Virus record (IMG/VR): IMGVR_UViG_3300033997_000553
Location: 2,008-66,007 of that record
Strand: one strand, 5' to 3'
Length of the DNA stretch: 64,000 nt
Origin: a virus
Taxonomy: Duplodnaviria > Caudoviricetes
Part shown: one piece after another, positions 8,104 to 63,778 of the stretch
How the letters are laid out: every line of letters begins with the position of its first letter
Numbering within the stretch: the first letter of the stretch is position 1
Notes under the pieces: model-generated
Told to the model about the DNA's origin: nothing
Databases searched by the model: none
What the model saw: only the letters and a program-made list of their open reading frames with translations
Made by a program: the position numbers and the translations under genes

Positions 8104-8133
8104 CCAGAGTCAAAGACTCAAGGGAGCCTATGA

Positions 8134-8361: not shown

Positions 8362-8372
8362 GAGGCGCGCCT

Positions 8373-8471
8373 ATGACCTTAGCTCAGCGACTGAAGGCCA
8401 TCGAACGCCACGCCGAGCTGCTGGTGGACGACCTGCGACATCTGCGCGAAGACCTCGAGCACGACGAGTAG
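8373..8471 (+). CDS. 32-aa helical peptide after cro
   Basis: GGAGG RBS; MTLAQRLKAIERHAELLVDDLRHLREDLEHDE. Confidence 0.55.
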   Translation: MTLAQRLKAIERHAELLVDDLRHLREDLEHDE

Positions 8472-45900: not shown

Positions 45901-48900
45901 TTGAGCGCCGTTACGCCGGCCAGCTGGCCGGACTGAAATCCGACAGCGAGCGAGAGGTGCTGATTGCCGAGGAATACGTCGCGCACCTGGCTGAACATGA
46001 CCCCAGCAACAGCGCGCTCGATCGCATCGTGGCGCTGGTCAAGCAGTTCATCCGCAAGCTGTTTGGCGAGCAGGCGGCCGGGAAATGGTCGCGTGCCGAC
46101 GTGGTGCAGCTGCTGGCCGAGGCCAAGCGGGCCGCTGGCAGCCAGGGGGTGAGCGACCGCGGCAGCCGTTACCGGGCCGCTGAAGCCGCCGACGCCCCGG
46201 CCGCACTGCCAGAAGTGGCGGAAGCCGACGAGGCTGAGTTTGTCGCCAGCTTGGCGGGCGACTCTGGCCACCGCGCCTTCGCCGGTGCCATCTACAAGGC
46301 TCGCGGCACCGAGTCGCCGTTCTTCCAGCGCTGGTTCGGCAAGAGCCGCATGGTCGACAAGCAGGGCCAGCCAATTGCCTTTGTGCACCGCAGCTATGGC
46401 GAGCGCGACAGCTTCAGCGATGCCGACCTGGGCAAGAACACCGGAACCCCGACCGCGGCCCTTGGCCACTACCTGGCACGCCGCGACGTGGGCAACGTGG
46501 AGCGCTACGGTCCGGTCACCGAGCAGTTCTATATCCGCATGGAGAAGCCGAAGGTCATCAGCCAGCAGCAGTTCGAGGCGATGGGCGACTGGTCGCTTGC
46601 GCAGGTTGAAGCGTATCGCAAGACCCTGATGGAGCGCGGTCATGACGGCCTGTACATCCAGGGGCTCGGCTGGGCGGTGGTATTCGAGGGCAAGAACATC
46701 AAGGCCAGGCGCAACTCTGGCACCTTCGATGAAACCGCGCGTACTCGCTACGCGGCAACAGAAAGCCTAATCGAAAAGCAGTTTGCCGATACCGAGAAGG
46801 CCATTGGTGGTCGAGCCACTTGGCAGCAGGCGAAGGATGCCGGCCGCACCAAGCTGGAGTATCGTCAGTGGGTGCAGGTGAGAACGCCTGCGTTTAAGGC
46901 ATGGTTTGGAGACTGGGAAAATGGCACTGAGCAAGGAGGAGCAGGCGTCGCTGGAAGCGCTCAAGAACGGGGCAGCCCTGGCGGAAGCACTGGATCTGCT
47001 GCCGCCACCACCACCGGAGTTTCTGGCAACGCTAAACCGCAACGCCGACCCGATAGCGGAGTACGGCGACTGGACGGACGAGGGCGAGTGGATTCCGCCG
47101 GAAGAGGCGTTGAAGCGTCTGGCAGAGAAGCAGCAGGCCAAGTAGAGCGCGACTGGCGCCTTGACCCCCAAACGGGAGAGCCTGCGGTATTTCACCACGG
47201 CACCCGCGACCACTTCACCGCGTTCGACCTGGATCACCCGAACCGCAAGGATAAGGGCTGGCTTGGGCGTGGCGTGTACCTGGCCAGCGACCGTCGCCTG
47301 GCAGATGCCTATGCCAAGCTGAAGCAGGGCTCCGGGCAGCCGCAGGTGATGGACTTGTTCGTCAATGTTCGCAACCCGGCTGTGGCCACGCTGGCGCACA
47401 AGCAAGTGCTCCGTCGCGCCTCGCAGGAGTACATCGATGCGGAAACGGCCGCTCTGATCGCTCGGGGCCACGACGGCGTGGTGATGGAGCTGCCAGACGG
47501 TACTCTGGAGCTGATGGCCTTCGATCCGGCCGACGTCAAGTCGGCGACCGATAACGCCGGGGACTTCGACCCGGCCAGCGCCGATATTCGCTACAGCCTG
47601 GCTCAGGATGCTGCCGATCTGTTCAACCGCTTCGGCCGGCGGCCGGCGGACGTGAACGACCCGTTTGCCGAGGAAAACCGTCGTCTGCGCGAGCAGGACA
47701 AAACCCTGTGGGGCAAGGCCAAGCAGCAATTCCGTCGCCAGTTCGCCCCGGGGGGCCTGCTGCCCGACTCGGTGTTTGCCGAGAAGATCGCCCGCGACAG
47801 CGAGTTTCAGGCCGTAGAGTTCGATGTGCGCCACCTGTCCGGCGGGCTGAACAAGGCCGTGAAGACTGACTACGGCGTCGACATCGACAACCTGACTGCT
47901 GAGCAGATGAAGCCGTTGGCCGAGGCGCTGACCGGCAAGGTAGACCCTGCCATCCCCGAAGCTACCCGCGTGGCTATCGTGGCCATGCGCCAATACATCG
48001 ACAGCCTTTCAGGCGAGTACCTGAGCATCCTGCAGAAGCAGGTCGAGGCGAACATGGAAGGCGCCGACCAGGCGTTGATCGACAAGATCACGGGCAACCT
48101 TGGCGCCTACGTCAACCGTTCGTACCAGGCGTTCGATGACCCGAAGTGGTTCAAGAGAGTGCCAACCGAAGTGGTCAATGCTGCCCGGACCTACCTGGCC
48201 AAGGGCTATATCGAGCAGGGCGAGACGCCGGCCGAAGCGGCGCGCCTGGCGGATGTGACCGTGAATGAAATGCTCAAGACCGGTACTGCTTATGATTCGA
48301 TGGGCGCATTCATTGCCGAGGGCAAGCTTGGCGCCAAAGACCTGACCGTGCTGATCAAGCGTAAGGAGATCGCGCCGGAGATCCGCGCGCTGCTGGGCGA
48401 GTACCTGGACCCGCGTCTGAACTTCGCTAAGTCGGCGACCAAGATGGGCCGTCTGGTGTGGAACCAGCGCTTCCTCGATCGCGTGCTGTCGTTCGGCATG
48501 GGCACCTTCCTGTTTGAAGGCAAGGACCGCCCGGCCGATGCCACGACGCAGATCGCCGGCGAGCAGTCGGAAACCTATGCGCCGTTGAATGGATTGTGGA
48601 CGTACCCGGAAGTCGCGCAAGCGTTTCAGGACGCGCTCGGCAAGGAGCAGATGAGCGACCTGTACCGCACAGTCGTTCGCCTGAACGGCATGGTGAAGTA
48701 CGGCAAGACCATCCTTTCCCCGACCACCGCCATGCGTAACTGGCAGTCGGCCATGTTCTTTTCCCTAGCCAATGGTCACTTCGACCTGACCCAGATGAAG
48801 AAGAGCTGGTCTGCTTTCCGCGAACAGGTAACCCAGAACGCCAGCGGCGACGACCTGGCGTACCTGCGTAAGCTGAAGCAGCTCGGCGTCGTTTACGACA

Positions 48901-50294
48901 CGCCGTATGCCGGCGAGATGATGGCGCTGCTGGCCGATGCCAGAATGGACGAGCTGCTGAGCAGCAAGAGCGGTACCGGCCTGAAGTGGCTGCGCAAGGC
49001 CAACCAGTTCGCCCAGGGCTTTTATTCGTTCGGCGACGACTTCTGGAAGATCATCGGCTTCGAGAACGAGAAGGCCAGCCTGATCAAGGCAGGCATTCCA
49101 GAGACCGAGGCGGAAACCATGGCCGCCGAGCGCATCCGCAACACCTATCCGACCTACTCGATGATCGGCAAGGCCGTGCAGTGGCTGCGGCGGTTCCCGC
49201 TGGTTGGCACCTTCGTCAGCTTCCCGTCGGAGATCATCCGCACAACCGTCAACATGATGAAGCTGACGGCGGATGATCTGAAGAGCGATAACCCTGGCAT
49301 CCGCGCCATCGGCCGCAAGCGCGCCGCCGGCATGGCCATGGTCTCGGCCGGCTTCTATGCGCTGTCAGCGCTGACTGCCGCTGCACTGGGCGTTGGCGAT
49401 GATGAGGAAGAGGCGCTGCGGGATCTGTCGGCGCCCTGGTCGAAGAACTCGACGTTCCTCTACACCGGCCGCGACGCCGACGGCAAGCTGCGCTACTTCG
49501 ACATGAGCTTCCTTGATCCGTACGGCTACTGGAAGCGCCCACTGACGGCGATGCTGCGCGATCAGCCCTGGGAGGACGCGGCCGTCAGCGGCCTGAACGA
49601 CATGCTGTCGCCGTTCTTCGGCGCCGATATCACCGCCGGGGCGATTTTCGAGGTGATGGCCAACAAGAAGCCCACCGGGGGCCAGGTGTACAACGAGCAC
49701 GCCGGCAGCGTTGACCAGCTGCAGGACATTGCCAACCACATGCGCAAGGCGCTGCAGCCAGGCTTCGTGAGCAATGGTGAGCGACTGTGGCTGGCCGGCA
49801 CCGAGGCCCGCCGCGAAGGCGGCGGCCAGCCCTACGACATGCGAGACGAGCTGGTCAGCCTGCTGGGCTGGCGTGCGGCTACGCTGGATACGCAGACCGG
49901 CTTGTACTACCGGTCGTTTGATTTCACCGACGCGCTGGCGGATGCCCGCAAGACGCTGACGCGCACGCTACGCAGCAGTAACGATGTTTCAGAGGGGGAT
50001 ATTCGGGAGTCGAAGCAGGCAGCGAATGCGCAGTATCAGCAGGCATTCACCGAGATGGGCAGGCTGGTCGGCGCTGCAGGGGCGGCTGGGATGAGCCGGC
50101 AGGAGATCATGCAGACGCTCAAGCTCAGCGGCGTGGCACAGCGCAACATCGTGGCGCTGCTGAATGGCAGGGTGCCGGCAATGGATATTGGCATGCAGGC
50201 GCAGGCCAAGGCCGTACAGCAGGCGAGGGTGATGCGCGACACTGAGCACGCCGCAGAGATTGCGCGGCGTTTCCGGCTGGCACGGGAGCAATAA
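39948..50294 (+). CDS. Giant polyvalent protein (ParB-like, LPD5/LPD1, PBECR/MuF-C-like nuclease, zincin peptidase, two ADP-ribosyltransferase-like domains)
   Basis: 3448 aa; VLDGHH, GEKLGGARKD, FGFRGVEFGNW...AHEWFHALD, LHEAVGH, WFGKS...FVHRS, WFGDW...FHHGT...GRGVYL. Confidence 0.9.
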   Translation: MTDTWGENDLLATDQPATDFGADDEVVQDGALSRGWNKAKQNMAISTDLALGDTEGAARTVGEAALYRQQNPGMQEGAELMQAWDEGDGIVGGVKAVAGEFSKDWNEADGFAAGARSVGKNLQAMGEGVLEQMGNMVAPVAGMVTGGVVGSKIGAPVGAAIGAPFAGVGAAPGAAIGGTVGGVAGAWAGASAGNAAIEGGGMAQEGLAQAGIDPTDLDAVKAYLDENRGELLKQASIKGGIIGAVDTATVGIAGRLLNGPTRAATARAMAALGVDGSDKAAVKSATQSQAFRDLLAQDAVFQSSRQGAERIARNMAAAAIYPAGEFAGEYVGTGVATGEWDTKNATLEALSSVGQSAAMYAGQKAYQAATGVGKIQPLVQPTPSAENPNPAPVERPDPSAGPLSAAANLLPAPNVDGGPSGSQSPVQEAARATLINGAPEPAQAGDYQPADLQTAVAQQMFRTEIDENNPGALRFFHRDADLQSWVEVPEREALAAAQAHIQDAERQGFDPMDGRDLGQLLPEVDQDPGPQGTGMAADDLTPYERNQLRALGVTDEQLASMTTREARQLPLPTVDIDSGPQVVEEAGESLPLPTVEMDSGPQQVEQVQAAPMADDSGYEYRVQKNGRPFKGESDVRLRQAFKEAVAAGEQPVVVQREGGWAVAVPRAAAGPVAPIGIPDLRQNSSAVDAAGNAVPGKIGNVPPADYVQSGRGMDQQAPTRTFPNVLAAKNAISKSPNPAQLEVVPVGPKQFEIRAKQSAAPGVTDQAPDVAVDAPASQPAAEAVAVAAPEAAPVKKAVTVKPSPSAADKAALPEVLRHPRKLAIAKMMKASGIKKGSQGYEAALARLELEYERQVDDAQAALPFEQFNALNKESPESVNRQAWTQLRTERGIEDAANPLASEETSPQQNIAVAAVAKSPQRQPPASKGRTAPTISSTTQPADVAASGQEKAEWVGFTPDSGTLGIPRAQMPQIKAEHRGAMVNFLNARDVAHAEETIAASELKPTQAEYSTKKVEAAKAFDGGERSILISSDRHVLDGHHQWLAKREAGEDVKVIRLDAPIRQLLDTVAEFPSASVDAASAGPASTPQAARVEDAGEKLGGARKDELRSVRERLDSMDDAAIANSTLSQLWPKDEITRIEDLFHAASYQTVREIIPAKPRVPYKVRAWVEKVKGAREILKHLAQLGADTTVAKMRQFSPGLRPIADKIELLMGVDRAQWGRIGRVSMASGRYSEGGTMVPGSWVEVEVDGRKKHFFGKNSVAEAMGDIRAVINLNSAPESRMKFAIYTDRRSGEVFIAKDGDKEQRRLKTFGKVAEARKFVADNHADLVTAWDAVKNRDNVTKADMRRDTNEDRAGRDYRNGADITPEQFIEAFGFRGVEFGNWVAQGSGGADRQGMLNQAYDAFMDLADVVGVPPKALSLEGRLGVGFGSRGRGRASAHFEPGNVVINLTKTKGAGSLAHEWFHALDNYFARQRGGEVPMERGFNAQQAYRNNNFITYRPEPLYIHKTKQSKPVSLDKLRRYHEQNPTAEYYNPANWQVDPRHPAGVRPEVERAFAELVEVLDQSPMSRRSAALDKNPDAYWSQIIERGARAFETYVIAKLADQGYRNDYLANVRSLEEFARAADRYPYLTPDEQGPVSEAFDKLFSTIEARQEQDGRVGLYRLNADTQAAYEQRIDDLFAGAEPNNTAGVRVLDRSDVLDLLGYGDREVVLAEKHAVSDGRFNHPQFTAADWKKVPEWLENPVAVFERDDGNLTVVAPETKGGNPILIAINPGASRPGYAGGKKLHVLLTAYDRDRGRFPAERMIRDGQLRYIDTRKSPAFNDSSRLRLPSNVVELRGLGKKVYTGADLFKYRSASSATDGQRLRVNPGKAKGIPLFSARAIAAKIGQATGLRVEPVADEAGLPAAVRAQIRRDGVSGRVAGVYHDGTSYLIASNLRDSQHAISVVLHEAVGHGGVKVVLGDKLGIAMRGIYRGMPAAMRTELERRYAGQLAGLKSDSEREVLIAEEYVAHLAEHDPSNSALDRIVALVKQFIRKLFGEQAAGKWSRADVVQLLAEAKRAAGSQGVSDRGSRYRAAEAADAPAALPEVAEADEAEFVASLAGDSGHRAFAGAIYKARGTESPFFQRWFGKSRMVDKQGQPIAFVHRSYGERDSFSDADLGKNTGTPTAALGHYLARRDVGNVERYGPVTEQFYIRMEKPKVISQQQFEAMGDWSLAQVEAYRKTLMERGHDGLYIQGLGWAVVFEGKNIKARRNSGTFDETARTRYAATESLIEKQFADTEKAIGGRATWQQAKDAGRTKLEYRQWVQVRTPAFKAWFGDWENGTEQGGAGVAGSAQERGSPGGSTGSAAATTTGVSGNAKPQRRPDSGVRRLDGRGRVDSAGRGVEASGREAAGQVERDWRLDPQTGEPAVFHHGTRDHFTAFDLDHPNRKDKGWLGRGVYLASDRRLADAYAKLKQGSGQPQVMDLFVNVRNPAVATLAHKQVLRRASQEYIDAETAALIARGHDGVVMELPDGTLELMAFDPADVKSATDNAGDFDPASADIRYSLAQDAADLFNRFGRRPADVNDPFAEENRRLREQDKTLWGKAKQQFRRQFAPGGLLPDSVFAEKIARDSEFQAVEFDVRHLSGGLNKAVKTDYGVDIDNLTAEQMKPLAEALTGKVDPAIPEATRVAIVAMRQYIDSLSGEYLSILQKQVEANMEGADQALIDKITGNLGAYVNRSYQAFDDPKWFKRVPTEVVNAARTYLAKGYIEQGETPAEAARLADVTVNEMLKTGTAYDSMGAFIAEGKLGAKDLTVLIKRKEIAPEIRALLGEYLDPRLNFAKSATKMGRLVWNQRFLDRVLSFGMGTFLFEGKDRPADATTQIAGEQSETYAPLNGLWTYPEVAQAFQDALGKEQMSDLYRTVVRLNGMVKYGKTILSPTTAMRNWQSAMFFSLANGHFDLTQMKKSWSAFREQVTQNASGDDLAYLRKLKQLGVVYDTPYAGEMMALLADARMDELLSSKSGTGLKWLRKANQFAQGFYSFGDDFWKIIGFENEKASLIKAGIPETEAETMAAERIRNTYPTYSMIGKAVQWLRRFPLVGTFVSFPSEIIRTTVNMMKLTADDLKSDNPGIRAIGRKRAAGMAMVSAGFYALSALTAAALGVGDDEEEALRDLSAPWSKNSTFLYTGRDADGKLRYFDMSFLDPYGYWKRPLTAMLRDQPWEDAAVSGLNDMLSPFFGADITAGAIFEVMANKKPTGGQVYNEHAGSVDQLQDIANHMRKALQPGFVSNGERLWLAGTEARREGGGQPYDMRDELVSLLGWRAATLDTQTGLYYRSFDFTDALADARKTLTRTLRSSNDVSEGDIRESKQAANAQYQQAFTEMGRLVGAAGAAGMSRQEIMQTLKLSGVAQRNIVALLNGRVPAMDIGMQAQAKAVQQARVMRDTEHAAEIARRFRLAREQ
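45398..45505 (-). ncRNA. Candidate antisense hairpin sRNA with its own promoter inside the polyvalent gene
   Basis: TTGAAA-17-TACCTT (45505-45477), then a ~70-nt hairpin with G-U pairs and a U5 tail. Confidence 0.6.
46921..47145 (+). CDS. Nested out-of-frame 74-aa acidic protein inside the second ART domain
   Basis: GGAGA RBS 8 nt before ATG; GC3-rich host-like codons; main frame is a low-complexity insert here. Confidence 0.7.
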   Translation: MALSKEEQASLEALKNGAALAEALDLLPPPPPEFLATLNRNADPIAEYGDWTDEGEWIPPEEALKRLAEKQQAK

Positions 50295-50665: not shown

Positions 50666-50980
50666 CTAAACAGCTTCAAGTCGTTCAATCATGTCCGGGA
50701 AGCGCTCAACCAGCTTGATCAGCAGGGCCGCCTGCGGGCTTGGGTCTGACTTCTCCTGCTCCCAGTTGCGCAATGTGCTTGGACTAGTGCGAATGCGCCG
50801 TGCAAAGACGGTCTGCGACATGTGCAACCTGGTACGCAGCGCCACAATTTCCTTGGCCGTTACCTTGGGCGCGGGCTTTTCGGCTACAGCATACTGGCGC
50901 AGGGTAATTTTGCCTTCCCGATGCGCCGCCATTTCTTCGACGCCTTGCATCAGCTCGGCGAACAAATCGCGCTTTTTCAT
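50666..50980 (-). CDS. higA: HigA-type HTH antitoxin
   Basis: IVALRTRLHMSQTVFA...TLRNWEQ; follows the toxin. Confidence 0.88.
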   Translation of the reverse strand: MKKRDLFAELMQGVEEMAAHREGKITLRQYAVAEKPAPKVTAKEIVALRTRLHMSQTVFARRIRTSPSTLRNWEQEKSDPSPQAALLIKLVERFPDMIERLEAV

Positions 50981-51321
50981 TGGGCACCTCGTGCTTTTAA
51001 CTCTTGGGTGATCGCTTGCTTCAGGGCTTTTTCCTGGTCAGCGGTCAGGTTTTCCAGTTCGTCCTTATCGTAGATGGCGAACATCCAGAACTGGCCATCA
51101 CCGAGCAGCCAGTAGTAGATGACGCGCAAGCCACCGCGTTTGCCCTTGCCTCGACGCCCGTCCGACCAACGCAGCTTGCGAAAGCCTCCCGTTCTCGGCA
51201 TCACATCGCCGGCGTGCGGATTGGCTATCAGCTCGTTTTGCAGCTGGCGATATTCATCGTCCGCCAGGTAGTTGCCTACCGTGGCGGTGAATGTAGAGGC
51301 TTCCAGGAAGACGGCTTTCAT
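50977..51321 (-). CDS. higB: HigB-2/RelE-family toxin
   Basis: GGFRKLRW...GKGKRGGLRVIYY...IYDKDE. Confidence 0.92.
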   Translation of the reverse strand: MKAVFLEASTFTATVGNYLADDEYRQLQNELIANPHAGDVMPRTGGFRKLRWSDGRRGKGKRGGLRVIYYWLLGDGQFWMFAIYDKDELENLTADQEKALKQAITQELKARGAQ

Positions 51322-51327
51322 GCGCGA

Positions 51328-51357
51328 AGTGTAGGCAGTCTGCCTATACTTTAGCAA
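51328..51357 (-). promoter_or_regulatory. higBA promoter/operator (probably leaderless mRNA)
   Basis: TTGCTA-18-TACACT with palindrome TAGGCAG-T-CTGCCTA; ATG starts 7 nt after the -10. Confidence 0.65.
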
Positions 51358-51360
51358 GCG

Positions 51361-52293
51361 CTAGCGCAGACGCTGAGCCGCCTCAGTGAGCTTGAAGGTG
51401 ATGCCGTTGTGCAGGCCACGATCAATGCTCTGTTGCAGGGCGCGGCAGAGCTGGTCGCACTTCTCCAGGTGGTGCTGCATGGCCATGACTTCCAGGCGAC
51501 AGGCCTCAACGTCGTAGCCGGCGCTGGCAAGCTCGGCGAACAGAGCACGCGACGGCGAGCGCACGTCCATGCCATACAGGGCGGCTGCAGTAATGTGAAT
51601 GCGCGGGTCTTGGCCCTGTGGTTGGTAGCCAAGCTGGTAGGCGTGCGGGTTGTGCTCGGCGAGCCAGCTGGCCGGGTAGTGGAGATTCAGTCGGGCAATC
51701 GGCTTGGCCTGTTCGGCGGCGAGCCATTCCCCTTCAAGCGCATAAGCGGCGATGAAGTTACGGGCGGCGTCCATCTGGTCGGCGGGGATGTCCTGGGCGC
51801 TCACCACGCTGAACGCTTTGTGCATCTGCGCCCAGACGTGCATCTTGGCGCGGCGCCGGGTAGGTGCGGGCAACTGACGCAGCTTGCCGTCCAGTACAGC
51901 ACCCAGGCAGCGGAAGCCGTCGGTGCCGATGGTCTGGCCGATCAGGGTGCGCATCTGGCCCTGATCCTCGTAGCGGCCGTGCTTGCGGATGGCCGGCAGG
52001 ACTTCGGCGGTGACCCACTTCTTGAAGCGTTTGGCTTCGGTCTTGCGGCTGCGCAGGATGGCCGAGTACAGGCCGGACTCGTTGATGACCAGCATTTCCT
52101 GCTCGCCGCCAAGGGTCGGCACAATCTGCCGACCCTTTTCATCATCGTCTAGGTTGCGCGTCATGTCCTTGGCTTCGCTGTACATCAGGGCCAAGGCAAC
52201 ATCAGATGCAACGAACCATGGCCGATCATCGATCAGCAGGGTACGGACTTCGCGGCTTTCGAAACGGAAGGGAATGACTTGGGCGGTTTGCAT
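51361..52293 (-). CDS. BRO-N antirepressor-like protein
   Basis: PWFVASDVA...INESGLYSAILRSRK.EAKRFKKWVT.EVLPAIRKHG; AGGAG RBS. Confidence 0.9.
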   Translation of the reverse strand: MQTAQVIPFRFESREVRTLLIDDRPWFVASDVALALMYSEAKDMTRNLDDDEKGRQIVPTLGGEQEMLVINESGLYSAILRSRKTEAKRFKKWVTAEVLPAIRKHGRYEDQGQMRTLIGQTIGTDGFRCLGAVLDGKLRQLPAPTRRRAKMHVWAQMHKAFSVVSAQDIPADQMDAARNFIAAYALEGEWLAAEQAKPIARLNLHYPASWLAEHNPHAYQLGYQPQGQDPRIHITAAALYGMDVRSPSRALFAELASAGYDVEACRLEVMAMQHHLEKCDQLCRALQQSIDRGLHNGITFKLTEAAQRLR

Positions 52294-52341
52294 GGCTGTC
52301 TCCTGGGGATGGAGTTCGCCGCCGTTGCGACCAAGCAAGAG

Positions 52342-52424
52342 GGTGGCGAACTGTGCGCAGGTTGGTCGACCGGGAGAGACGCAACCCGGCAGGGCCGAAG
52401 CCCTCCCACGCACAGCCCGCCATA
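52342..52424 (-). ncRNA. C4 antisense RNA (P1-type) with flanking targets
   Basis: ATGGCGGGCTGTGCG...CTTCGG...CGACCAA...CGCACAGTTCGCCAC fold; complementary TTGGTCG sites near 52330 and 52480; promoter TTGACG-17-TACCTT at 52545-52517. Confidence 0.8.
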
Positions 52425-52622
52425 AAGCGAGCACAAAAAAACCGCTGACGCGGTATGTGCGACATCTCGATTCCGGGCGACCAAACCCGTACCGCTGAAT
52501 TTGCAGCGGCAGGGGAAAGGTAAACCCGGAAGCAGTGATCGTCAATGGCGCACATTGCGCCACCATTACTGGGTAGGTAGATTGGTCGAGCGCAATTTCC
52601 TGCGCGTCAAAGGAGCGACGAA

Positions 52623-53250: not shown

Positions 53251-53337
53251 GCCCGAATGGCGAAATCGGTAGACGCAGGGGACTTAAAATCCCTCGCCAG
53301 CAATGGCATGCCGGTTCGAGTCCGGCTTCGGGCACCA
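53251..53337 (+). tRNA. leuZ: tRNA-Leu (UAA)
   Basis: 87-nt cloverleaf, anticodon loop CT-TAA-AA, long variable arm, GGTTCGAGTCC, CCA. Confidence 0.96.
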
Positions 53338-54097
53338 AGAAAATCAACGACTTAGGTCAGCCATCGTGCTGGCCTTTTTCGTTTCTAGGGGTTTTCGTGT
53401 CTATACCGTGTCTATAGGGAACTGGACGCGGGCGCCGACGGACGGCAACGCTGCATCGTGACCTACCCGGCACGAAATGTGTGGCCCAGAGCTGCGCGGC
53501 AGCTCAATGTGATCACCTTGGGCAGGACAAGGTCGCCAAATGGAGAGATTCCCCGACAGGGCCGAGAAAACTGGGAAGCGGAATTGCAATTGATTGCAAC
53601 GAATATTGAAGCCCCACCACCAAGTGGAGTTTTCTTACCCCGCGTGACGTGCCCCACGGGTGACCATATATGGACTGTCGCTGACAGGCAGCCAGCACCC
53701 TAAGCGGACATCCCCATGCTAGTGCAGCCGCTACGTCCGTTGCGGTTTTTGATGGTGCGCTTAGTGATTGAAAGCAGAATTTTACGCCCTTTACGCAGCT
53801 TCTCCGGCGCTCATGTTGACGATCTTGCGCTCCGCTGCTTATCATTCCGCTACGGCTCCTGATTCGTTGCATTGATCATGCAGTGATCTGGAGGGCTACT
53901 GAGAGACCCAGCGGATTTCCTCAATGTGGAGTCCAAGCGCTTCTCAAGGGCTGTAGCAACGCCCACGCGCTGTCGAGTATGTGGTTCTGCCCGACAGACG
54001 ACGTTGCCAACAGTTTGGAACCAGGCAGCTATATATTGCATTCATCGATACCCGCCACACTCGGTGGCGGGATATTGACTTTACGCCTGGAATTTAA

Positions 54098-54985
54098 ATG
54101 GACGAACTAGCGCACGCCAAACAGCTGATACTGCAGCTGCTCTCCACCGTATCATTCGAATACTGTGCCCGCCTCAAGCAACGCCTCAATAGCAACTTGG
54201 CCTCTCAAGGCCTGCCCGTCTTCAATGAGCTCAAATACGGTAGCAAGAAGTTCTCGCAGTTCCTCGCGACCCAGTTTGATGACAGGCTGATCCTGGAAAA
54301 GCCCATCGGCCTGGGGGACATCCGCGTTTCGCTCAATCATCCGCTCCCTGGCACGGCGCATGTCGGCAGCACCGGCTTCGCATCGAAACGCGAGCAGTTG
54401 ATGGCCATTCGCAGTGACATCTGGCAAGCCTTCACCAACCCCGATGAAAAGAGAAAGCGTTACCTCAATCGCATCACAAGCGAGGTCGTACATTTCATCG
54501 AGGACGCTCAGGATGAGTTCCAGCAGAAGGTGCAGGCAGCACCGCAGAGTTACATCGAAATTGAATTCATTCCTGCCGCGACCCTGCAGGAATGGATGCA
54601 CGAGTTTCTCGACCTGCTTGGCTTGCCGGCAACCGAAAGAGCTCCACTGGAAAGCCTCATTGCCAGTGAGTACTCAAGCAGCGTGAACGCCGCCTTCACC
54701 AAGGCGCTGGGTAGTCGAGAGCAAGAGTGGCGAAAGATTCGCACACTCAAGGTCGCCGAACGTATCAAGGCCTGGGCGACCCAGCACAACATCAAACACG
54801 AAAACCTGAGCCTTCAGCGGCACTCCGAAGTCACGCAGCCTACCACTTCGGTTGAGGTGCAAGTCCGTGTGCTGACTCCGCGACAGCAGGCCACCAAATT
54901 GCTTGAGCGCATGAGTGATGAAGACATCCTCACAGTCGCAATCCCGGTGCTACTGAGCAGCGTCCTGAGCAAGTCGCAAATCTAA
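54098..54985 (+). CDS. OST-HTH/LOTUS + UPF0158-like protein
   Basis: LKQRL...FNELKYGSKKFSQFL; RYLNRITSEV...YIEI..IP...WMHEFL...W...IKAWATQHNI. Confidence 0.7.
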   Translation: MDELAHAKQLILQLLSTVSFEYCARLKQRLNSNLASQGLPVFNELKYGSKKFSQFLATQFDDRLILEKPIGLGDIRVSLNHPLPGTAHVGSTGFASKREQLMAIRSDIWQAFTNPDEKRKRYLNRITSEVVHFIEDAQDEFQQKVQAAPQSYIEIEFIPAATLQEWMHEFLDLLGLPATERAPLESLIASEYSSSVNAAFTKALGSREQEWRKIRTLKVAERIKAWATQHNIKHENLSLQRHSEVTQPTTSVEVQVRVLTPRQQATKLLERMSDEDILTVAIPVLLSSVLSKSQI

Positions 54986-55001
54986 GGTTTGGCAGGTAGC
55001 G

Positions 55002-55859
55002 ATGACTCAGGTTTTTATCATCGGCTTACCCATCCAGTTGCGCAGACGCGTTGAGTCCTCACTTGAAAACCGCGGCATATCGCCAGCGATCATCCTAGCC
55101 GACAGTGATAAGTTAGGCCGGCTGAAACTGCTTCCTGATCCGACCTTGGCCGCCAGTCGGCTCCGTGAGTATTGTGAGTCGGTTGATGGCGGCTACGACC
55201 ACGCGGAGGTGTATGTCCTGCCTTACACCCCCATACCCCAAGACGTTAATGACGAACTCGACGCCCTGGAAGACATGGGCGCCCAGATCATCGCCTTCGA
55301 AATGGAGCAGGATGGCTGGCCCTATCTGCACGCCGCCAAACCCAAGATTACTCAGGATTTCCAGGATCAGGTATTCAATGCGCTGTTCGAGGAAATCGTA
55401 GGAGAAGAGGACGAGGCTGCGGTCCTGCCTTCCGAGTACATCCGGCGCGCATGCGAGGGATCACCAAATCTCATCATCGTTGGCAGCGCGATTGACCTGT
55501 GTGATGCAATCGCCGTCGGACGCCGTTTCTGGGTCAGGAAGGCGATTGATGCGTTCGTTGAAATCATTGCCCATAACGGCAATATCGGAGGAACGCTGGA
55601 CGCATTCTTCGAAGACCGCCAGCTCTACCACGCCAAATCGGGCGGTATCTCAGTCAAGCTGGAGATCCGAGCTGGCGGAGAGCAGGTGCACCTTGAGACC
55701 AGTAACGAGCACCTCAAGAAAGGTGACAACACGACACCGCAGGCTGCCGTACGCGTCTACTATCAACTCCTTGCCCTAGAGGGCGAGTTCTATGTATTCC
55801 TCCTCTACATAGGCCCCCACCCGGATCGAAATCTTTCCTATGTCCATCACCTGTCCTGA
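55002..55859 (+). CDS. Protein with a C-terminal RelE-like RNase domain
   Basis: EHLKKG...VRVYY...LLYIGPHP C-terminus; N-terminal alpha/beta domain. Confidence 0.65.
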   Translation: MTQVFIIGLPIQLRRRVESSLENRGISPAIILADSDKLGRLKLLPDPTLAASRLREYCESVDGGYDHAEVYVLPYTPIPQDVNDELDALEDMGAQIIAFEMEQDGWPYLHAAKPKITQDFQDQVFNALFEEIVGEEDEAAVLPSEYIRRACEGSPNLIIVGSAIDLCDAIAVGRRFWVRKAIDAFVEIIAHNGNIGGTLDAFFEDRQLYHAKSGGISVKLEIRAGGEQVHLETSNEHLKKGDNTTPQAAVRVYYQLLALEGEFYVFLLYIGPHPDRNLSYVHHLS

Positions 55860-56193
55860 GCGAACGCGCCCATCCGTCCCGCTCTAGACCTCCTGACCGG
55901 ACAGCTCATCGAGCTAGCTCTACCGGCTAAGCCGGTGCAATTGGAATTGCCGTTAGAGATGCCGACACGGGAGAGTGCCCAGCCTGTGTTACAGCAGCGA
56001 ACGCTTCCTGAGCCCTGCTAGGCCGCCGAACCGGGATAGGTCTCAAGGCTCTCGCCGTGCGCTTCTCGCACCATGGCCCGGCCGCCTGCGTGCATGGGTC
56101 TATACTAAAGGTCGCGCCGATTTGTGACAGCTTGCGGGGCGCATGAGAAATGCCGCTAAACCGTCGCCCCCGGCAGGGGGTAGGTGCATCGCC

Positions 56194-56412
56194 ATGACTA
56201 TCTTCATCATCCCAGACGAAACCCTTCCGGCCTTCACCCATCCGGCCCTAGACCTCGCCACCGGAGAACTCATCGAGCTGGCAGCTGAGCCGGCTCCGGT
56301 TCAACTGGAACTGTTCGGCGCTCAGAGCTCACGCCACCTGGCCACCGTGCGTCTGGTCTGCACCGCAGGCTGCCCTATTACCTGCGCCCTGTCCGATACC
56401 CTGCTGCAATGA
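56194..56412 (+). CDS. Small protein with a QLELF motif
   Basis: MTIFIIPDE...PVQLELFG; 3' end overlaps a convergent ORF. Confidence 0.45.
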   Translation: MTIFIIPDETLPAFTHPALDLATGELIELAAEPAPVQLELFGAQSSRHLATVRLVCTAGCPITCALSDTLLQ

Positions 56413-56549
56413 TCCGACAGGTTCCCTACGAAGGTATCGCGGACCAGCTTCCACGCTCTGAGCTGCTCGGGCGTCAGGGTGTCGCCGGCATCCACGTCGA
56501 TGGTCAAGCGCAGCACCTTCACCGCCATGCGGATTTCATCCTCACTCAT
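56322..56549 (-). CDS. Hypothetical protein
   Basis: 75 aa overlapping the upstream gene. Confidence 0.55.
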   Translation of the reverse strand: MSEDEIRMAVKVLRLTIDVDAGDTLTPEQLRAWKLVRDTFVGNLSDHCSRVSDRAQVIGQPAVQTRRTVARWREL

Positions 56550-56913
56550 CAGGCTTCTCCTGTACTGCCGTCAGGGCCTGCTGCTCCTTCTGTAGCTCCA
56601 GGCCCTTGTTGAGTGCGAACGCTATCCGCATGACTGCGTCGAGGTCGCTGCCGATGCTCACCTGCTGGACCAGCACATCCGGGTCTTCCTTGGGCGGTAT
56701 TGGCATGAGTCTGGCCAGCGGGCCATTAACGAAGGCGCTCGGGTTCTCCTTCGCCCATCGGTAGAGGAAGGCCGGCCCGCCGAGCATGTTGTATACGTCC
56801 AGAATGTCGGCGGCCATCTGAGCCGTGACTACGGTTCGCTGGCCCTTGTCCAGCGAGCCGCGCGCACGTCCGCCGCGTTTGCTGGCGTTGGGGGTGCCTG
56901 GCGGCCTGGGCAT
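56542..56913 (-). CDS. Small-terminase-like protein
   Basis: GGRARGS.DK...ILDVYNMLGG..FL..WAKENP.AF...LARLMP pattern of TerS-like proteins. Confidence 0.6.
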   Translation of the reverse strand: MPRPPGTPNASKRGGRARGSLDKGQRTVVTAQMAADILDVYNMLGGPAFLYRWAKENPSAFVNGPLARLMPIPPKEDPDVLVQQVSIGSDLDAVMRIAFALNKGLELQKEQQALTAVQEKPDE

Positions 56914-57140
56914 TACCCGGTTCCTTCCCTGGCGATGATCTGCAGGCGCCCCTGGTGCTCGATCACTTCAATGAAAACCCTGTCGCCCCGTTCGCTGCAC
57001 AGGCCTTCGGTGGCGCGCGGGAACTCGGCGAAGTAGGAGGCGACGTTCTGTGCGTCTTCCAAGGCCTGGACCAGGCAGCGCGCTTCTTCCAGCGCTTCGT
57101 CGATGTTGCCGTAGCCGCTGTTCGGTTCGTAGGTGATCAT
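56913..57140 (-). CDS. Hypothetical protein
   Basis: 75 aa, coupled. Confidence 0.65.
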   Translation of the reverse strand: MITYEPNSGYGNIDEALEEARCLVQALEDAQNVASYFAEFPRATEGLCSERGDRVFIEVIEHQGRLQIIAREGTG

Positions 57141-57601
57141 CGCGGCTCTCCATCCTGATATTCACGTGCGCTGGCCAGTTCTGGTATCGGTGGCGGCGGC
57201 AGCACCGGCACGGCGTCGCTGGGCACCAGGCGCAACACGCGGCCAAGACTGTCCCGTTGCACATCGAGCTTCATGCCGCCGACCTCCACCCAGGCAGCAC
57301 GGCCTTCGCCGTCACGATGGATCAGGGCGGTCAGGTCTTTGGGCGGTGCAGCCTTGGGTGGCTCTGGAACCTGACTGAAGTCCGTCTTCGGCACAGGTGC
57401 ATTGAAGTCACGCATGAGCTGACGCAGGCGCGGGCTGGTCGGCTGACCCTGCCGTTCAAGGTGCTCGTCGATGCGTTCCCGCACAGCCTGTTCGACCAAG
57501 GCATCAATCGCAGCACCGAGGTCAGTGGCCGGCCGGGCTTCCTGTGCCGGCGGTTTTCTACGTTCTACATCCCGAAGGATTCGCTGAAGTCGCGGATTCA
57601 T
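57137..57601 (-). CDS. Hypothetical protein
   Basis: 154 aa, ATGA overlaps. Confidence 0.7.
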   Translation of the reverse strand: MNPRLQRILRDVERRKPPAQEARPATDLGAAIDALVEQAVRERIDEHLERQGQPTSPRLRQLMRDFNAPVPKTDFSQVPEPPKAAPPKDLTALIHRDGEGRAAWVEVGGMKLDVQRDSLGRVLRLVPSDAVPVLPPPPIPELASAREYQDGEPR

Positions 57602-57885
57602 AAAGGCTCTCCCAGTAGCCGGCGTAGCAGGGCCAGATCACCTGCCTGGAGGTAAGCCGCGTCAACCAGATGGTTCAGCTTCGCCAGTAGTACCGGGTTC
57701 TCGCCCGTGGCGGCGAGCCTGTCGCGCAATATCCGACCGTCCGCCTTTAGTTCATTCTGGCTTTTCATGGTTAGTTTCCTCTTGCGTGCAATATTCAGTC
57801 GGCGGTCAAAGTCGGCGACGGCCCAACAGGCATCTGAAATAGCCAGATCGGGAATTGGACGGGCCATTCTCATTTCACTGTTCAC
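57598..57885 (-). CDS. Hypothetical protein
   Basis: 95 aa, coupled. Confidence 0.6.
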   Translation of the reverse strand: MNSEMRMARPIPDLAISDACWAVADFDRRLNIARKRKLTMKSQNELKADGRILRDRLAATGENPVLLAKLNHLVDAAYLQAGDLALLRRLLGEPL

Positions 57886-58246
57886 TCAGGCCAAGGATCA
57901 AAGTGCGCGCAGCAGTCTGCGCCACTGCGACACCTGCGGAAGTTTCAGATACCAACTTAACCTTCTGGATACCTGCAAATTGAGCTGGGTCGAACACCAC
58001 GATTCGGTTTGCCGAGGTGGGGTATGTCAGATGATCACCAGCGGTATTGTAAATCGGGTAGAAGTTTGTAGATCCGATGGAAGCCTGAAAGCCAATAGCA
58101 GCGGCAGTCCACGCAGTAGACATTTCGACCGCGCACAATGTAAGGCCCGTGATATTAACTTCTTCGCTGAGACCATCAGCTGCCGTAGTCATCGAGATAG
58201 CTGCAAAGGTGCGCGTACTCGGTCTTGGATTTACTACGTTGGCCAT
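57875..58246 (-). CDS. Virion-structural-like beta protein
   Basis: MSTAWTAAAIGFQAS...FYPIY...VAQTAARTL pattern seen in phage structural proteins. Confidence 0.6.
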   Translation of the reverse strand: MANVVNPRPSTRTFAAISMTTAADGLSEEVNITGLTLCAVEMSTAWTAAAIGFQASIGSTNFYPIYNTAGDHLTYPTSANRIVVFDPAQFAGIQKVKLVSETSAGVAVAQTAARTLILGLSEQ

Positions 58247-58250
58247 GATT

Positions 58251-59153
58251 TTAACCATCCCTCAAGGTTAGTAAGTGGCGATAACGAGCTTGCAGACGCT
58301 CATCAGATAACCACTTCTTGCGCTCGTATTTCATACAAGCCTCACATGCTGCTATTTCATCCTGTAGGGCCGCACCGCTTCTTGGAATACTTCCGCTGCC
58401 TACTGCCTGCTCATATAACCCCAAGATCACAGTCGGATCATTAAGGGCATGAAGGCCATTATCTAAGAACCTATCAAAGTGTTCCTGTTCGACAGCAGAA
58501 AGACCATGAAGGTATTGATCGACCATCTGCAAATTCAAGTAGTAGCTGTCCTTCCACTTGGCCCGCAAAATGTCTTGGGTGTGTGGCTTCATTTTCTCGT
58601 TATAGTCGTACAGCGCGTTGTATGTTTGATCGTCGAGTTGGTCGGTATTAGAGCCATCCATGGCTTGAGGGCGATCATGGCCACTTCCGTTATTCTGCTG
58701 TCGCTCCAATTCCTCGATGAAATAGATTGAGTTGGAAATAAATTCTTGCGGTGCGTTATATCGAGCCATGTAGTTGGCGAAGGACTCGGCCAGCGGGTCG
58801 CCGGACTGGGAATGTAGCTCGTAGGGGTGCCGCTGCTGCTCATGCCGTGGCGGTTGCGTGGCAGAGGCTCTGAACCAAGTGATAGCCGCGTTGATCAGGT
58901 TTGCCGGGTGGCCCCAATTTGCCATGCTTGCCATGTAGGAGCCCGAAATCATCGAGATAACGCGCTCGACGTGTTCTTGAGTGGCTCCGGGAGGTAGCGG
59001 CGTGCCGAACCACTGCGGGGCGCTGCTGTGCTGCTGGCGGTCGCTGAGGTAGTCCGGGACATCACCCCATTCATCGCGTGTCGGTTGCAGTTCGCCCGGC
59101 TGGCTGTATGGCTGAAGGCCGCCAGGGCTGTACCGTTCGATGTCGTTACTCAT
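58251..59153 (-). CDS. Capsid-scaffold-like protein
   Basis: LRAKWKDSYYLNL...LNDPTVI...DEIA...LQARYRHLL resembles podovirus scaffold C-termini. Confidence 0.55.
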   Translation of the reverse strand: MSNDIERYSPGGLQPYSQPGELQPTRDEWGDVPDYLSDRQQHSSAPQWFGTPLPPGATQEHVERVISMISGSYMASMANWGHPANLINAAITWFRASATQPPRHEQQRHPYELHSQSGDPLAESFANYMARYNAPQEFISNSIYFIEELERQQNNGSGHDRPQAMDGSNTDQLDDQTYNALYDYNEKMKPHTQDILRAKWKDSYYLNLQMVDQYLHGLSAVEQEHFDRFLDNGLHALNDPTVILGLYEQAVGSGSIPRSGAALQDEIAACEACMKYERKKWLSDERLQARYRHLLTLRDG

Positions 59154-59607
59154 GGACTACCCCCGCGCGTGCGACCTGAGTTCTCATGGAAAGCCATGGC
59201 CGCATACAAATCGGATGCAGCCGACTGCGATGCACCGGCTGCCCATGCAGATTTAGTTCGCTGACTAATTCAAGGTCGGATAATCTTTTTGCGTCTTGCA
59301 GACACCAGCGGCACTGCGTATTGGAAACGGGGAAATTGTCGAGGCGGTATTTCATCTGCTCGATGGTCGGCGGCGTAGCCAAAGAAACGAGACTCCAGTC
59401 GCCTGTGGTATTGCGCCACAAGCCCACTTCGTACTGTTCCATTAATTCTTTGTGGGTGCTTTCCTTGCGGAGATAGTGGATAAGCGCTTCGAGGTCGGGA
59501 GCACCAGTTACCATAGATGCAGCGACGAATTTGGCGAGCGCGGTAATGTCGCCGCGGTAGCTGATGAACTGTATGGCCACTGCCTGCACATGGGCATGGA
59601 GGTTCAT
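59146..59607 (-). CDS. Hypothetical protein with a possible Zn site
   Basis: CRWC...HPIC. Confidence 0.65.
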   Translation of the reverse strand: MNLHAHVQAVAIQFISYRGDITALAKFVAASMVTGAPDLEALIHYLRKESTHKELMEQYEVGLWRNTTGDWSLVSLATPPTIEQMKYRLDNFPVSNTQCRWCLQDAKRLSDLELVSELNLHGQPVHRSRLHPICMRPWLSMRTQVARAGVVHE

Positions 59608-60071
59608 TGGCGCAGACTCGCATGCTGGAGTAGTTGTTCCAGGCAATCGGTCTGTGACTTGGCCATGCTGACGACAACCACTCCATCAGAGTTTCGGATG
59701 GCCTGCCACCCAGTCTCCGGGCCCGTATAAACGAGTTTGTGGTTGTTGGGGAGGATTTCGCCGACGCTTGCGAGCATGGCGGGCAGCCTGACAAAACTGA
59801 GCTGGTGAACTTCTACGTAACCCATTCCGGCCTGCAAAACCAAGTAGCGGGCATAGAACGTGCGGTCCGCAGCGATAATGATCAGCTCGTCAAACGCGTG
59901 GAATTGGTGGGAAATCACACTGTAGAAACTTGACTCTTCCAGGCGCTCGGGAGTTGTGCCCAATGGAGCGATGATCCGAAACACGTTACCCGCAGCCTCG
60001 CGCAGGCGACAGTCACGCATGGTCAGGCTTACAGCTGGTTTGCGGATATCTTCGGCAACTTCGTTAGCCAT
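59604..60071 (-). CDS. Phage-derived hypothetical protein
   Basis: 155 aa; YTGPETGWQAIRNSDG motif resembling podovirus head-region proteins. Confidence 0.65.
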   Translation of the reverse strand: MANEVAEDIRKPAVSLTMRDCRLREAAGNVFRIIAPLGTTPERLEESSFYSVISHQFHAFDELIIIAADRTFYARYLVLQAGMGYVEVHQLSFVRLPAMLASVGEILPNNHKLVYTGPETGWQAIRNSDGVVVVSMAKSQTDCLEQLLQHASLRQ

Positions 60072-60165
60072 TGGGGGCGCTCCAACAAGTTGGGTGTTGG
60101 AACTGGTATAACGCGGGGCGGGCTACTTGTTAATGCCGATATCGCAGAAAGGCTGCACGTCTTCG

Positions 60166-60504
60166 TTAGAGTTGCAGCCTTTTTAAATAATTGAATACAT
60201 AGCGCCAGCCTGGCACCGGGGTTATCCCTTTAACGGCAATCTGCCGCTGTAGCCACTTGGCCCTGCTGGTGGCGCTACCCGTCCATGCCGTGAGTTGCAG
60301 CCGGTGCAGTTCCACGGCGGTATCGGTAACGGTGCGCAGGTCGGCGGTGCGCTGGGCACGCATGGCTGCGGCTTTGTCGGCACCTTGGGCGCGCCTGTGC
60401 TCCAGCTCGGCCAAGATATCGTCGAGCTGCTGCTTCCAGGGCGACGGCACAACGCGCCGCAGCACGTTGTCCAGTTCGCCAGTCGATGATGCTGTGACGT
60501 TCAT
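60166..60504 (-). CDS. Hypothetical protein
   Basis: 112 aa. Confidence 0.65.
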   Translation of the reverse strand: MNVTASSTGELDNVLRRVVPSPWKQQLDDILAELEHRRAQGADKAAAMRAQRTADLRTVTDTAVELHRLQLTAWTGSATSRAKWLQRQIAVKGITPVPGWRYVFNYLKRLQL

Positions 60505-60626
60505 AACCTAATCCCCTTCACCGGCTGCCGAATACCGTTCAAGCACTTCGTGCCGCGCGGTTGCCACGGGTGGTCATAGGAGGGCTCGTGCAGGTCGAGG
60601 ATGGTCCGCAGTCTGGTCGTTCTCAT
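60501..60626 (-). CDS. 41-aa ORF coupled to the next gene
   Basis: AGGAGG RBS; ATGA overlap with 60166..60504. Confidence 0.5.
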   Translation of the reverse strand: MRTTRLRTILDLHEPSYDHPWQPRGTKCLNGIRQPVKGIRL

Positions 60627-60909
60627 GTAGATGCCTCCTACGAGCGCGCAGGCGCGCTTTTCTTGATGTAGCCCGTGCAACCCTACAGGCTGGGTGGCGA
60701 ACGCATCACGTGAGGCGTCCTGGCAAACGGCTTCACCTCATAACAGGTACAGAACAGGCACGAAAACCACGTTTCCACATGAAACCAGCTGAAATGCCTG
60801 ATCTAGACGTGCTAAGCATGGGACTACAAATCCCTTGATGATCTTTTCCTGTGTGGTCTGATCATCCATCTTGCCGTTCGCAGCCATATCGGAACCTCGT
60901 TCTAGTTTT

Positions 60910-61236
60910 CTAATTCTGTATGCCCACCTGGGTCTGTTCACTGCTGCAACCCAGTTCATTGACTAGACGCACCAGTAGCTGCGAATACGTTTCACCCGGC
61001 AACCGGGCGGCTCTGACAGCAGCTAGATCCGGCGCCTGAAACCATAACGTCACGTTCACCCAACCCTCAGCCCTGCGGCGAGCGCGCAGTGAACGCATGC
61101 TCTTTGCCGTCTTCGTCTTGGGCTTCGGTGCAGCTATCACCCAGCCCTGGCTCATCAGCCGCTCGACCTCAGCCGGATTGCTGATCGTCCTGGCTTGAGA
61201 TGGATGGCATAAGAGTTTCGGCTTCATAATCTTCAC
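60910..61236 (-). CDS. Basic DNA-binding-like protein
   Basis: MRSLRARRRAEGWVNVTLW motif. Confidence 0.65.
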   Translation of the reverse strand: MKIMKPKLLCHPSQARTISNPAEVERLMSQGWVIAAPKPKTKTAKSMRSLRARRRAEGWVNVTLWFQAPDLAAVRAARLPGETYSQLLVRLVNELGCSSEQTQVGIQN

Positions 61237-61254
61237 CAGGGGTAAAAACCCGTT

Positions 61255-61356
61255 CTGTGAAAAAGTTAAAAATTAATAGCTGTTTTCCTATAGCACTATA
61301 GAAATCGTCTTCTCGTGGAGCTGATATATAAAAGTGGTTTTATTTTTAACTTTCTA
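61255..61356. promoter_or_regulatory. Putative satellite replication origin
   Basis: AT-rich tract after the primase-helicase gene, bounded by inverted AAAGTTAAAAAT / ATTTTTAACTTT. Confidence 0.55.
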
Positions 61357-63768: not shown

Positions 63769-63778
63769 AGCATGCCCC

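Follow-up and report, generated by a model that had tools for sequence, protein, structure and literature searches.

The locus described here lies in a 64,000-nt stretch of DNA (hereafter, the window) taken from an IMG/VR provirus record of a tailed virus (Caudoviricetes; IMGVR_UViG_3300033997_000553, positions 2,008 to 66,007), which stops at the window end. Two genes, referred to here as gene A and gene B, stand in the same orientation with a 16-nt gap between them (54986-55001). The first-pass annotation of this DNA, made from sequence alone, had proposed a two-gene anti-phage system composed of a LOTUS-UPF0158 protein and a RelE-like effector, with a hairpin just upstream. Both open reading frames (ORFs) are indeed present, as is the hairpin, CCCGCCAC-ACTCG-GTGGCGGG at 54051-54071, 26 nt 5' of the gene A ATG. 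The number of parts had to be revised, as this hairpin is one element of a conserved, folded RNA that is itself preceded by a promoter, which makes the module three-part. Its features are as follows:

53816-53845, plus strand: sigma-70-type promoter, TTGACG-18 nt-TATCAT, driving the RNA and probably the operon
53852..54097, plus strand: conserved structured RNA of ~245 nt, made up of a 5' hairpin, a core of several helices, a further hairpin and a probable closing helix
53890..54021, plus strand: core of the RNA (model R1), with helices P2-P4 around the invariant GACGACG and GGAAC
54021..54090, plus strand: probable closing helix, CCAGGC (54021-54026) paired with GCCUGG (54085-54090), enclosing the 3' hairpin
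54098..54985, plus strand: gene A, an ORF of 295 aa
Gene A, residues 1-81: LOTUS/OST-HTH winged helix
Gene A, residues ~100-235: UPF0158-like domain, an alpha/beta plus helical body
Gene A, residues 83-98 and 242-255: disordered linkers
Gene A, residues 261-294: two C-terminal helices
55002..55859, plus strand: gene B, an ORF of 285 aa
55002..55406, plus strand: gene B N-domain (residues 1-135), Rossmann-like alpha/beta, without a conserved Asp/acidic cluster
55428..55859, plus strand: gene B C-domain (residues 143-285), a BECR/RelE-like putative RNase

The promoter is the sole promoter-like site on either strand of 53340-56200, and 21 of 23 loci have a TTGAC-N16-19-TAnnnT site 252-282 nt 5' of the start codon of gene A, the remaining two (L007 and L045) carrying variants. 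The RNA was recognized from a hairpin kept across all loci with changed stems, within a conserved non-coding sequence of ~250 nt 5' of gene A; its start was inferred from the -10 box, and both ends are predicted rather than transcript-mapped. The fold in the window has a minimum free energy (MFE) of -87.9 kcal/mol (z -2.46). For the core, 23 sequences were aligned with L-INS-i and a structure of 31 pairs was obtained with RNAalifold. In this structure 88.0% of cells are paired, compared with 32-49% when the partners are slid, a control somewhat favoured by the derivation of the structure from the same alignment. Compensatory changes affect 18 pairs (95 cells), and the covariation score of 0.434, against at most 0.133 for slid and 0.215 for shuffled alignments, was reached by none of 500 shuffles. 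A 5' hairpin of variable sequence appears in the MFE fold of 21 of the 23 sequences. The hairpin at 54051-54071 is the conserved 3' stem-loop of the RNA, with 14 pairs across 21 related loci, 91.1% of cells paired (42-55% when slid), eight compensatory pairs and a score again reached by 0/500 shuffles; its apical CACACUCYGUG is kept even where the stem changes. The hairpin of the first-pass annotation is thus more than a chance palindrome. Searches against Rfam 15 returned no RNA match at E<=1 in window positions 53340-54200; five other loci (L027, L033, L036, L046 and L011) were likewise without a match at E<=0.1, and the motif is new relative to this release.

The closing helix, present in both the MFE and centroid folds, ends 7 nt 5' of the ATG in the window. 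Across loci, the duplex energy with the helix's own partner averages -8.8 kcal/mol, versus -6.5 with the partners of other loci, with z<-2 in 6 of 21, and we regard this helix as probable, with moderate support. If it is real, transcripts must read through the 3' hairpin, which favours a leader. This bears on an explanation that we consider unlikely, in which the RNA acts in trans, as a type III-like RNA antitoxin or as a ribonucleoprotein (RNP) subunit with the gene A product, and its decay or displacement on infection triggers the RNase. The order of promoter, RNA, hairpin and protein gene recalls the type III toxin-antitoxin system ToxIN, in which a hairpin separates an RNA from the endoribonuclease gene that follows it. 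The RNA of the module is preceded by a strong promoter of its own, its 3' hairpin is followed by T-rich, terminator-like runs in several relatives (L008, L007, L032 and L045), and its structural conservation far exceeds what a plain terminator needs. The LOTUS domain is also described as RNA-associated in the accessible text of PMC2848206. Against a role in trans stand the need for read-through transcripts, the weak T-run at the window hairpin and the absence of tandem repeats: no direct or tandem repeat family was found in the RNA region, and the alignment describes a single non-repetitive fold.

All three parts travel together. Gene A lies directly 5' of gene B in 27/27 loci with upstream DNA, over a span of 31-59% identity, which supports the pairing made in the first-pass annotation. 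The pair was found at 7/7 genome loci (Pseudomonas twice, Nevskia, Paraburkholderia, Duganella, Acidovorax and a Comamonadaceae metagenome-assembled genome), at two of two further loci (L023 and L026) and at 18/18 metagenome loci with upstream DNA; two more metagenome loci begin too near gene B for gene A to be judged. Four Pseudomonas aeruginosa variants have consecutive protein accessions for the pair. The RNA is present 5' of gene A at all 25 loci with enough upstream DNA, namely 15 metagenome loci, the window and nine genome or viral loci. It was detected by nhmmer in 14 of the 15 metagenome loci, the fifteenth (L045) being a divergent copy seen by eye. A covariance model of the core, R1, gave exactly one match per genome, at the pair, in 5/5 genomes, and scored 107.8 bits in the window, by construction. 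Over 151 genomes of one genus, R1 matched G003 and G024, both of which carry the pair, and G138; over 151 genomes of another order, only the centre genome matched and none of the 150 others did. The module is sparsely distributed: gene B occurs in 2 of 401 genomes of the genus of G003, and the pair was found on one other contig among 2.9 million in IMG/VR. Neither the pair nor gene A by itself had a match in collections of 50,697 phage records and 72,556 plasmids. No fused or longer forms were found among proteins of 500-2000 aa, which is weak evidence.

The gene B product was modelled with AF2 (predicted local distance difference test, pLDDT, 89.8) as two domains. The C-domain consists of two to three helices and a beta-sheet (helices at 172-190 and 199-204, then strands over 209-284). 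Invariant in 37 sequences, and also in a set of 12 that includes distant forms, are R174, H237, K239, G241, D242, T244, R251, Y253 and G271-P-H-P274. The HLK.G, RVYY and YIGPH motifs pointed out in the first-pass annotation are all present in gene B and are invariant or nearly so in its 37 relatives. Among these residues, H237, K239, R251, Y253 and H273 are conserved basic or histidine residues (with one tyrosine) of the kind seen in BECR toxins and are putatively catalytic. The strand motif R-[VI]-Y-Y ... [VF]-L-L-Y and the C-terminal histidine also resemble those of a HigB-like toxin encoded elsewhere in the window. For the C-domain, a structural search of the ESM Atlas gave RelE/ParE as the nearest named cluster, followed by BrnT; the ParE/RelE match has a template modelling (TM) score of 0.62 by row and 0.43 by query, over 88 aligned residues. 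Foldseek with the whole protein returned nothing from the PDB at E<=0.001, and none of the Pfam RelE/ParE-type families matched the 37 relatives, the only match being to DUF4258, once, at E 0.043. PADLOC HEC-07 matched 8 of the 37 relatives (best E 0.0065) and was set aside as chance; PDB sequence-profile matches were likewise chance rows only.

Gene B is close to the RelE/ParE/YafQ/YoeB group of BECR toxins in its nearest named structural cluster and in its position close 3' of a partner gene. It differs from them in its length of 285 aa with an extra N-domain, in the lack of any sequence-model match and in its partner, a 295-aa multidomain protein rather than a small antitoxin. An HMMER profile of the C-domain retrieved 154 proteins among 1.84 billion cluster representatives, in two length classes (~272-294 aa and 237-262 aa), with no classical RelE or ParE among them. 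In CARF-RelE (Cami1), a Rossmann-like sensor is fused to a RelE-type RNase; the present module differs from both Cami1 and ToxIN, as it lacks a repeat array, a ToxN-type toxin and any CRISPR or cyclic-oligonucleotide context, and its RNA is a single complex fold.

A homologue of the gene B C-domain was found in Menshen-type operons. At two myxobacterial loci (L009 and L010), the same C-domain ends a 326-aa protein encoded 3' of a GmrSD_N/DUF262 protein and an AAA_21/DUF3696 ATPase, and PADLOC identified this trio as NsnA (E 1e-110), NsnB (E 2e-101) and NsnC (E ~7e-20, full length). Alignment of the gene B family with the NsnC-matching protein by hhalign gave a probability of 99.3% (E 1.3e-20, 134 columns) over the C-domain only; no homology was detectable between the two N-domains, and the PADLOC NsnC models matched neither gene B nor its 37 relatives. 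NsnC is described, in the accessible text of Li et al. 2025 (PMC12065111), as an inactive PIN-like Rossmann domain joined to a BECR RNase with an active-site H-R-H triad, to which H237, R251 and H273 of gene B appear to correspond. Gene B thus shares the two-domain layout of NsnC, with a Rossmann/PIN-like domain without catalytic acids followed by a BECR-type domain with His-Arg-His, and, given the homology of the C-domain and the fit of the triad, it is predicted to be an NsnC-type effector. The RelE-like C-terminus of the first-pass annotation is supported by the Atlas match and by the homology to the C-domain of the NsnC-matching protein; the protein is not an isolated RelE but has the two-domain layout described for NsnC.

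The partners of gene B set the module apart from Menshen, as they are a LOTUS-UPF0158 protein and a structured RNA. NsnA (ParB-DUF262) was not found among 18 window neighbours or at nine related type-I loci, nor was NsnB (ABC ATPase-DUF3696) found beside the pair in the window or at those nine loci; both occur only at L009 and L010. Because of these absences, the module is not Menshen. LOTUS, OST-HTH and UPF0158 are not mentioned in the accessible text of Li et al. 2025 (PMC12065111) or in that of a 2026 preprint on BECR classification. We rate the module as a putative Menshen-type BECR effector under a new RNA-linked controller. At L009 (3358-6682) and L010 (7210-10426), the neighbours of the Menshen-type operons are a PtuA-like ATPase, a type I HsdR that carries a fused S24 peptidase, RhuM/PDC-S05 and a ZorD/DpdE-like helicase.

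LOTUS domains are best known from animal germ-granule proteins. The AlphaFold model of gene A (pLDDT 87.7) had LOTUS domains as its best three matches among 48,161 solved chains, which establishes a LOTUS-type winged-helix fold; Foldseek with the whole protein returned nothing from the PDB at E<=0.001. At the sequence level, UPF0158 (PF03682) reached 14.3 bits on residues 106-233 of gene A (E 0.044), below the Pfam cut-off of 21.1, and matched 17 of 58 relatives at E<=1 (best 1.5e-4). OST-HTH/LOTUS (PF12872) had no match to the window gene A at E<=1 and matched 44 of the 58 relatives at this threshold (best 5.2e-5). NCBI names the relatives by either domain, the P. aeruginosa members being called 'OST-HTH/LOTUS domain-containing protein'; relatives of gene A include HBO9019087.1, EPN9800014.1, HCD9749796.1 and HHX6829271.1. 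Both sequence models are weak for the protein of the window. A PADLOC AbiEi match to residues 219-278 (E 5e-4) was weak and was dismissed as chance. Prediction of a complex between the two proteins scored 0.09 against a mark of 0.32, which weighs neither way.

In the accessible text of Anantharaman et al. 2010 (PMC2848206), the bacterial LOTUS domain is described as almost always fused to an NYN/LabA-type nuclease, without conserved neighbourhoods. The combination of a LOTUS winged helix with an RNase is shared by the present module; here, however, a BECR protein encoded by its own gene is the putative nuclease, and the fusion partner of LOTUS is UPF0158 rather than NYN. A second comparison is with SzsA, a P. 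aeruginosa protein that, in the accessible text of a preprint (Bae et al. 2026, bioRxiv 10.64898/2026.04.06.716636), 'contains a LOTUS domain', is encoded in a large defence island and blocks RNA phages; binding of phage RNA and recruitment of effectors are the mode of action proposed there. It is possible, though we hold it less probable than the reading developed below, that the module is the Szs (Seongzusin) system or a close relative. An SzsA-like gene A would then be the main restriction factor, recognizing the RNA of single-stranded RNA (ssRNA) phages through LOTUS and recruiting the gene B nuclease, with no toxin-antitoxin pair and no host killing. A LOTUS-domain protein in a Pseudomonas defence island, the proposed recruitment of effectors and the NCBI LOTUS name of the P. 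aeruginosa gene A members all agree with this. However, SzsA and gene A are likened by description rather than by sequence comparison, and the accessible text on Szs describes no BECR partner or upstream RNA, a single coding region having given protection. Since the commonest bacterial LOTUS proteins carry an NYN-type nuclease according to the same part of PMC2848206, SzsA could belong to another family, and its site as given in the accessible report, PA0714-PA0730, is not shown to match the window, which has a tRNA-Leu alongside. The first-pass annotation had not recognized the pairing as a named system. PADLOC has no match to the gene pair as a system, and literature searches on UPF0158 and on OST-HTH with phage returned nothing on the pair; the LOTUS defence protein itself, judging from the accessible part of the preprint, had already been described as SzsA.

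The pair was also found to reside in defence islands. ORFs within ~7 kb of the pair (for L026, over the whole 20-kb stretch) were called with a GC3-based caller and scanned with Pfam (149 ORFs) and PADLOC (117 ORFs), after removal of the pair genes, three ORFs <70 aa and ORFs overlapping better ones; the scan excluded L023 and covered L011 and L012 only in part with PADLOC. Known defence genes adjoin the pair at seven of the eight scanned type-I loci, and integrases, integrative and conjugative element (ICE) genes or phage genes are present at some loci. The neighbours are listed below, L011 and L012 carrying a variant form of the pair (type II):

L002: complete cyclic oligonucleotide-based anti-phage signalling system (CBASS; 2TM effector, cyclase, E1-E2 and JAB)
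L004: Lamassu LmuABC and PDC-S31
L005: Lamassu-like trio and a retron III-A reverse transcriptase with a phosphoribosyltransferase (PRTase)
L006: PDC-M54A and a PtuA/AriA-like ATPase
L007: PifA and a Ppl-like protein
L008: type I restriction-modification and PDC-S18
L026: type I restriction enzyme
L003: RelE toxin and integrase only
L012: ICE
L011: phage tail genes

At L002, a 419-aa DUF4427 protein without a PADLOC hit (7200-8459, minus strand) is encoded between the CBASS operon and the RNA-A-B module.

These neighbourhoods bear on a further explanation, that of an ordinary type II-like addiction module that stabilizes mobile elements, has no role in phage defence and uses the RNA as an autoregulated 5' leader. 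The antitoxin-then-toxin order, the 16-nt gap, a 5' protein that starts with a winged helix and has a C-terminal helical tail behind a disordered linker, and carriage on an ICE, prophage-like elements and integrase-bearing islands are what such a module would show, and only 7-21 nt separate the probable closing helix from the ATG, as in a cis-acting leader. We nevertheless find this explanation doubtful: known defence systems adjoin the pair at all but one of the scanned type-I loci, the same C-domain is the effector domain of a Menshen-type operon, and the proteins of genes A and B are each roughly threefold larger than the partners in classical RelBE pairs.

The explanation that we favour, with a probability of roughly 55%, is a horizontally mobile, three-part conflict module, most likely anti-phage or toxin-antitoxin-like. 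A single promoter would transcribe the ~245-nt structured RNA up to the gene A start codon and then genes A and B. Gene B would be the effector, with a non-catalytic Rossmann/PIN-like domain and a BECR (RelE/YafQ-like) RNase domain; we infer an RNase effector because of its BECR-like fold, its H-R-H residues and the fact that an effector of Menshen type carries this domain too. Gene A would be the regulator or sensor, a role in RNA binding and regulation being suggested by the LOTUS domain, the 5' position 16 nt away and the antitoxin-like helical tail on a flexible linker. Its LOTUS winged helix may bind its own leader, phage RNA or both, and its UPF0158-like body and C-terminal helices may restrain or recruit gene B. 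Infection, or the loss of a labile RNA or protein, would then free or direct the RNase, which would cut RNA and stop translation or the accumulation of phage RNA, with the RNA serving either as an autoregulatory leader bound by gene A or as a working partner. The result might be abortive infection through ribosome-dependent cleavage of mRNA or a selective cutting of phage RNA. A stronger form, in which the structured RNA is a working subunit that constitutes with the LOTUS-UPF0158 protein an RNP switch gating the NsnC-like RNase, is speculative and, in our estimation, rather improbable.

Several observations weigh against the reading as a conflict module with a BECR RNase effector and an RNA leader. 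No sequence model of Pfam, NCBIfam, PADLOC, PHROGs or PDB matches gene B, and hhalign of its C-domain was not significant against either the HigB-like ORF of the window (P 0.0086, 24 columns) or eight ParE toxins from two genomes (P 0.015, 16 columns). The 154 proteins retrieved with the C-domain HMMER profile include no NsnC class of 300-330 aa, and the C-domain may be a minor NsnC C-domain type rather than PB-BECR1. A consensus scan gave no terminator call at the 3' hairpin of the window, where the T-run is weak. L003 lacks a known defence neighbour. In G138, an orphan RNA (L057 ~7690-7860, minus strand; G138:C1:818724-818839; R1 64 bits, E 2.6e-10) has its own hairpin, with neither gene A nor gene B traceable within 12 kb of it; this copy is either what is left of a lost module or an RNA able to stand alone. 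If SzsA, known from the accessible part of its report, is a relative of gene A, gene A alone would be protective, which is a poor fit to a simple antitoxin role.

Three further pairs, referred to as type II (L011 7099-8890, L012 8660-10429 and L048), encode a gene A-like protein and a gene B of 244-250 aa with a different N-domain. The gene A-like protein was matched by hhalign at 92% for L011 and at only 6% for L012. Each of these pairs is preceded by a promoter and by a shorter RNA in which the GACGAC motif and a hairpin with a T-run recur; R1 finds nothing in them or in the Menshen loci.

In the window, the module is flanked by a tRNA gene and by two elements:

53251-53337, plus strand: tRNA-Leu(taa), a neighbour outside the module and a possible integration landmark

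A terminator-like hairpin with a T-run follows immediately after this tRNA (53354-53375, plus strand), and the 440 nt between it and the module promoter are without a convincing ORF. No att repeat was found inside the window, and the position at the att-proximal end of a satellite, given in the first-pass annotation, is putative. The left-hand side encodes a phage protein of 3448 aa, a HigA/HigB-like pair and a Bro-N/Ant protein. The first is encoded by a single ORF at 39948-50294 (plus strand), with a metalloprotease-like HEWFH motif and many domains, and resembles the 'polyvalent' injected proteins of phages. The HigA-like HTH_3 protein (103 aa) and the RelE/HigB-like protein (125 aa; PF06296 E 3e-4, phrog_5869 2e-33) at 50666-51357 (minus strand) adjoin the Bro-N/Ant anti-repressor (51361-52566) and constitute a second RelE-type module at the prophage end. 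On the right, every retained ORF over 56322-64000 is on the minus strand, including a D5_N primase/helicase and an AlpA-like HTH_17 protein. The pair, on the plus strand, is thus opposite in orientation to this element, as the first-pass annotation had noted. Its lower GC relative to the prophage was also seen (0.54-0.57 versus 0.61-0.65 at 48000-50250, with 0.62-0.65 at 56000-57500), and the GC falls further within the right-hand element (0.46-0.51 at 57750-58750). This trough holds a 300-aa ORF (58251-59153, minus strand), and the minus-strand ORF run at 56322-60504 has no Pfam match and almost no PHROGs match.

The position of the module between the prophage end (Ant/Bro-N and the HigBA-like pair) and the primase/AlpA element, together with the variant pair of L011 within a phage tail gene cluster, would suit a module that serves the mobile element itself, through interference of a satellite with its helper phage or control of lysogeny via RNA turnover, rather than host defence. 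We judge this very unlikely, as most relatives are in chromosomal islands beside defence systems and not in satellites, and as the viral and plasmid collections gave only the one other IMG/VR contig and no phage or plasmid match.

If the conflict-module reading is true, the conserved structured RNA (~245 nt, at least five helices with covariation) would be a new one among the few built into bacterial immune or toxin modules, and a Menshen-type effector layout would be controlled through RNA binding by a LOTUS protein, where Menshen has a ParB-like DNA sensor and an ABC ATPase. The RNP switch, if it were real, would represent a new class of non-coding RNA-dependent immune module that has nothing but the effector domain in common with Menshen and is adapted to detect foreign RNA, for instance the genomes of ssRNA phages. 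If SzsA belongs here, the defence role has already been partly shown, and what the module contributes is a nuclease partner, an RNA and a connection to Menshen; from the accessible part of that report, the nuclease and the RNA would be likely missing parts of the reported RNA-phage defence. With a partner RNA and a partner nuclease defined in bacteria, the role of bacterial LOTUS domains would become directly testable, and the unstudied UPF0158 family gains its first context.

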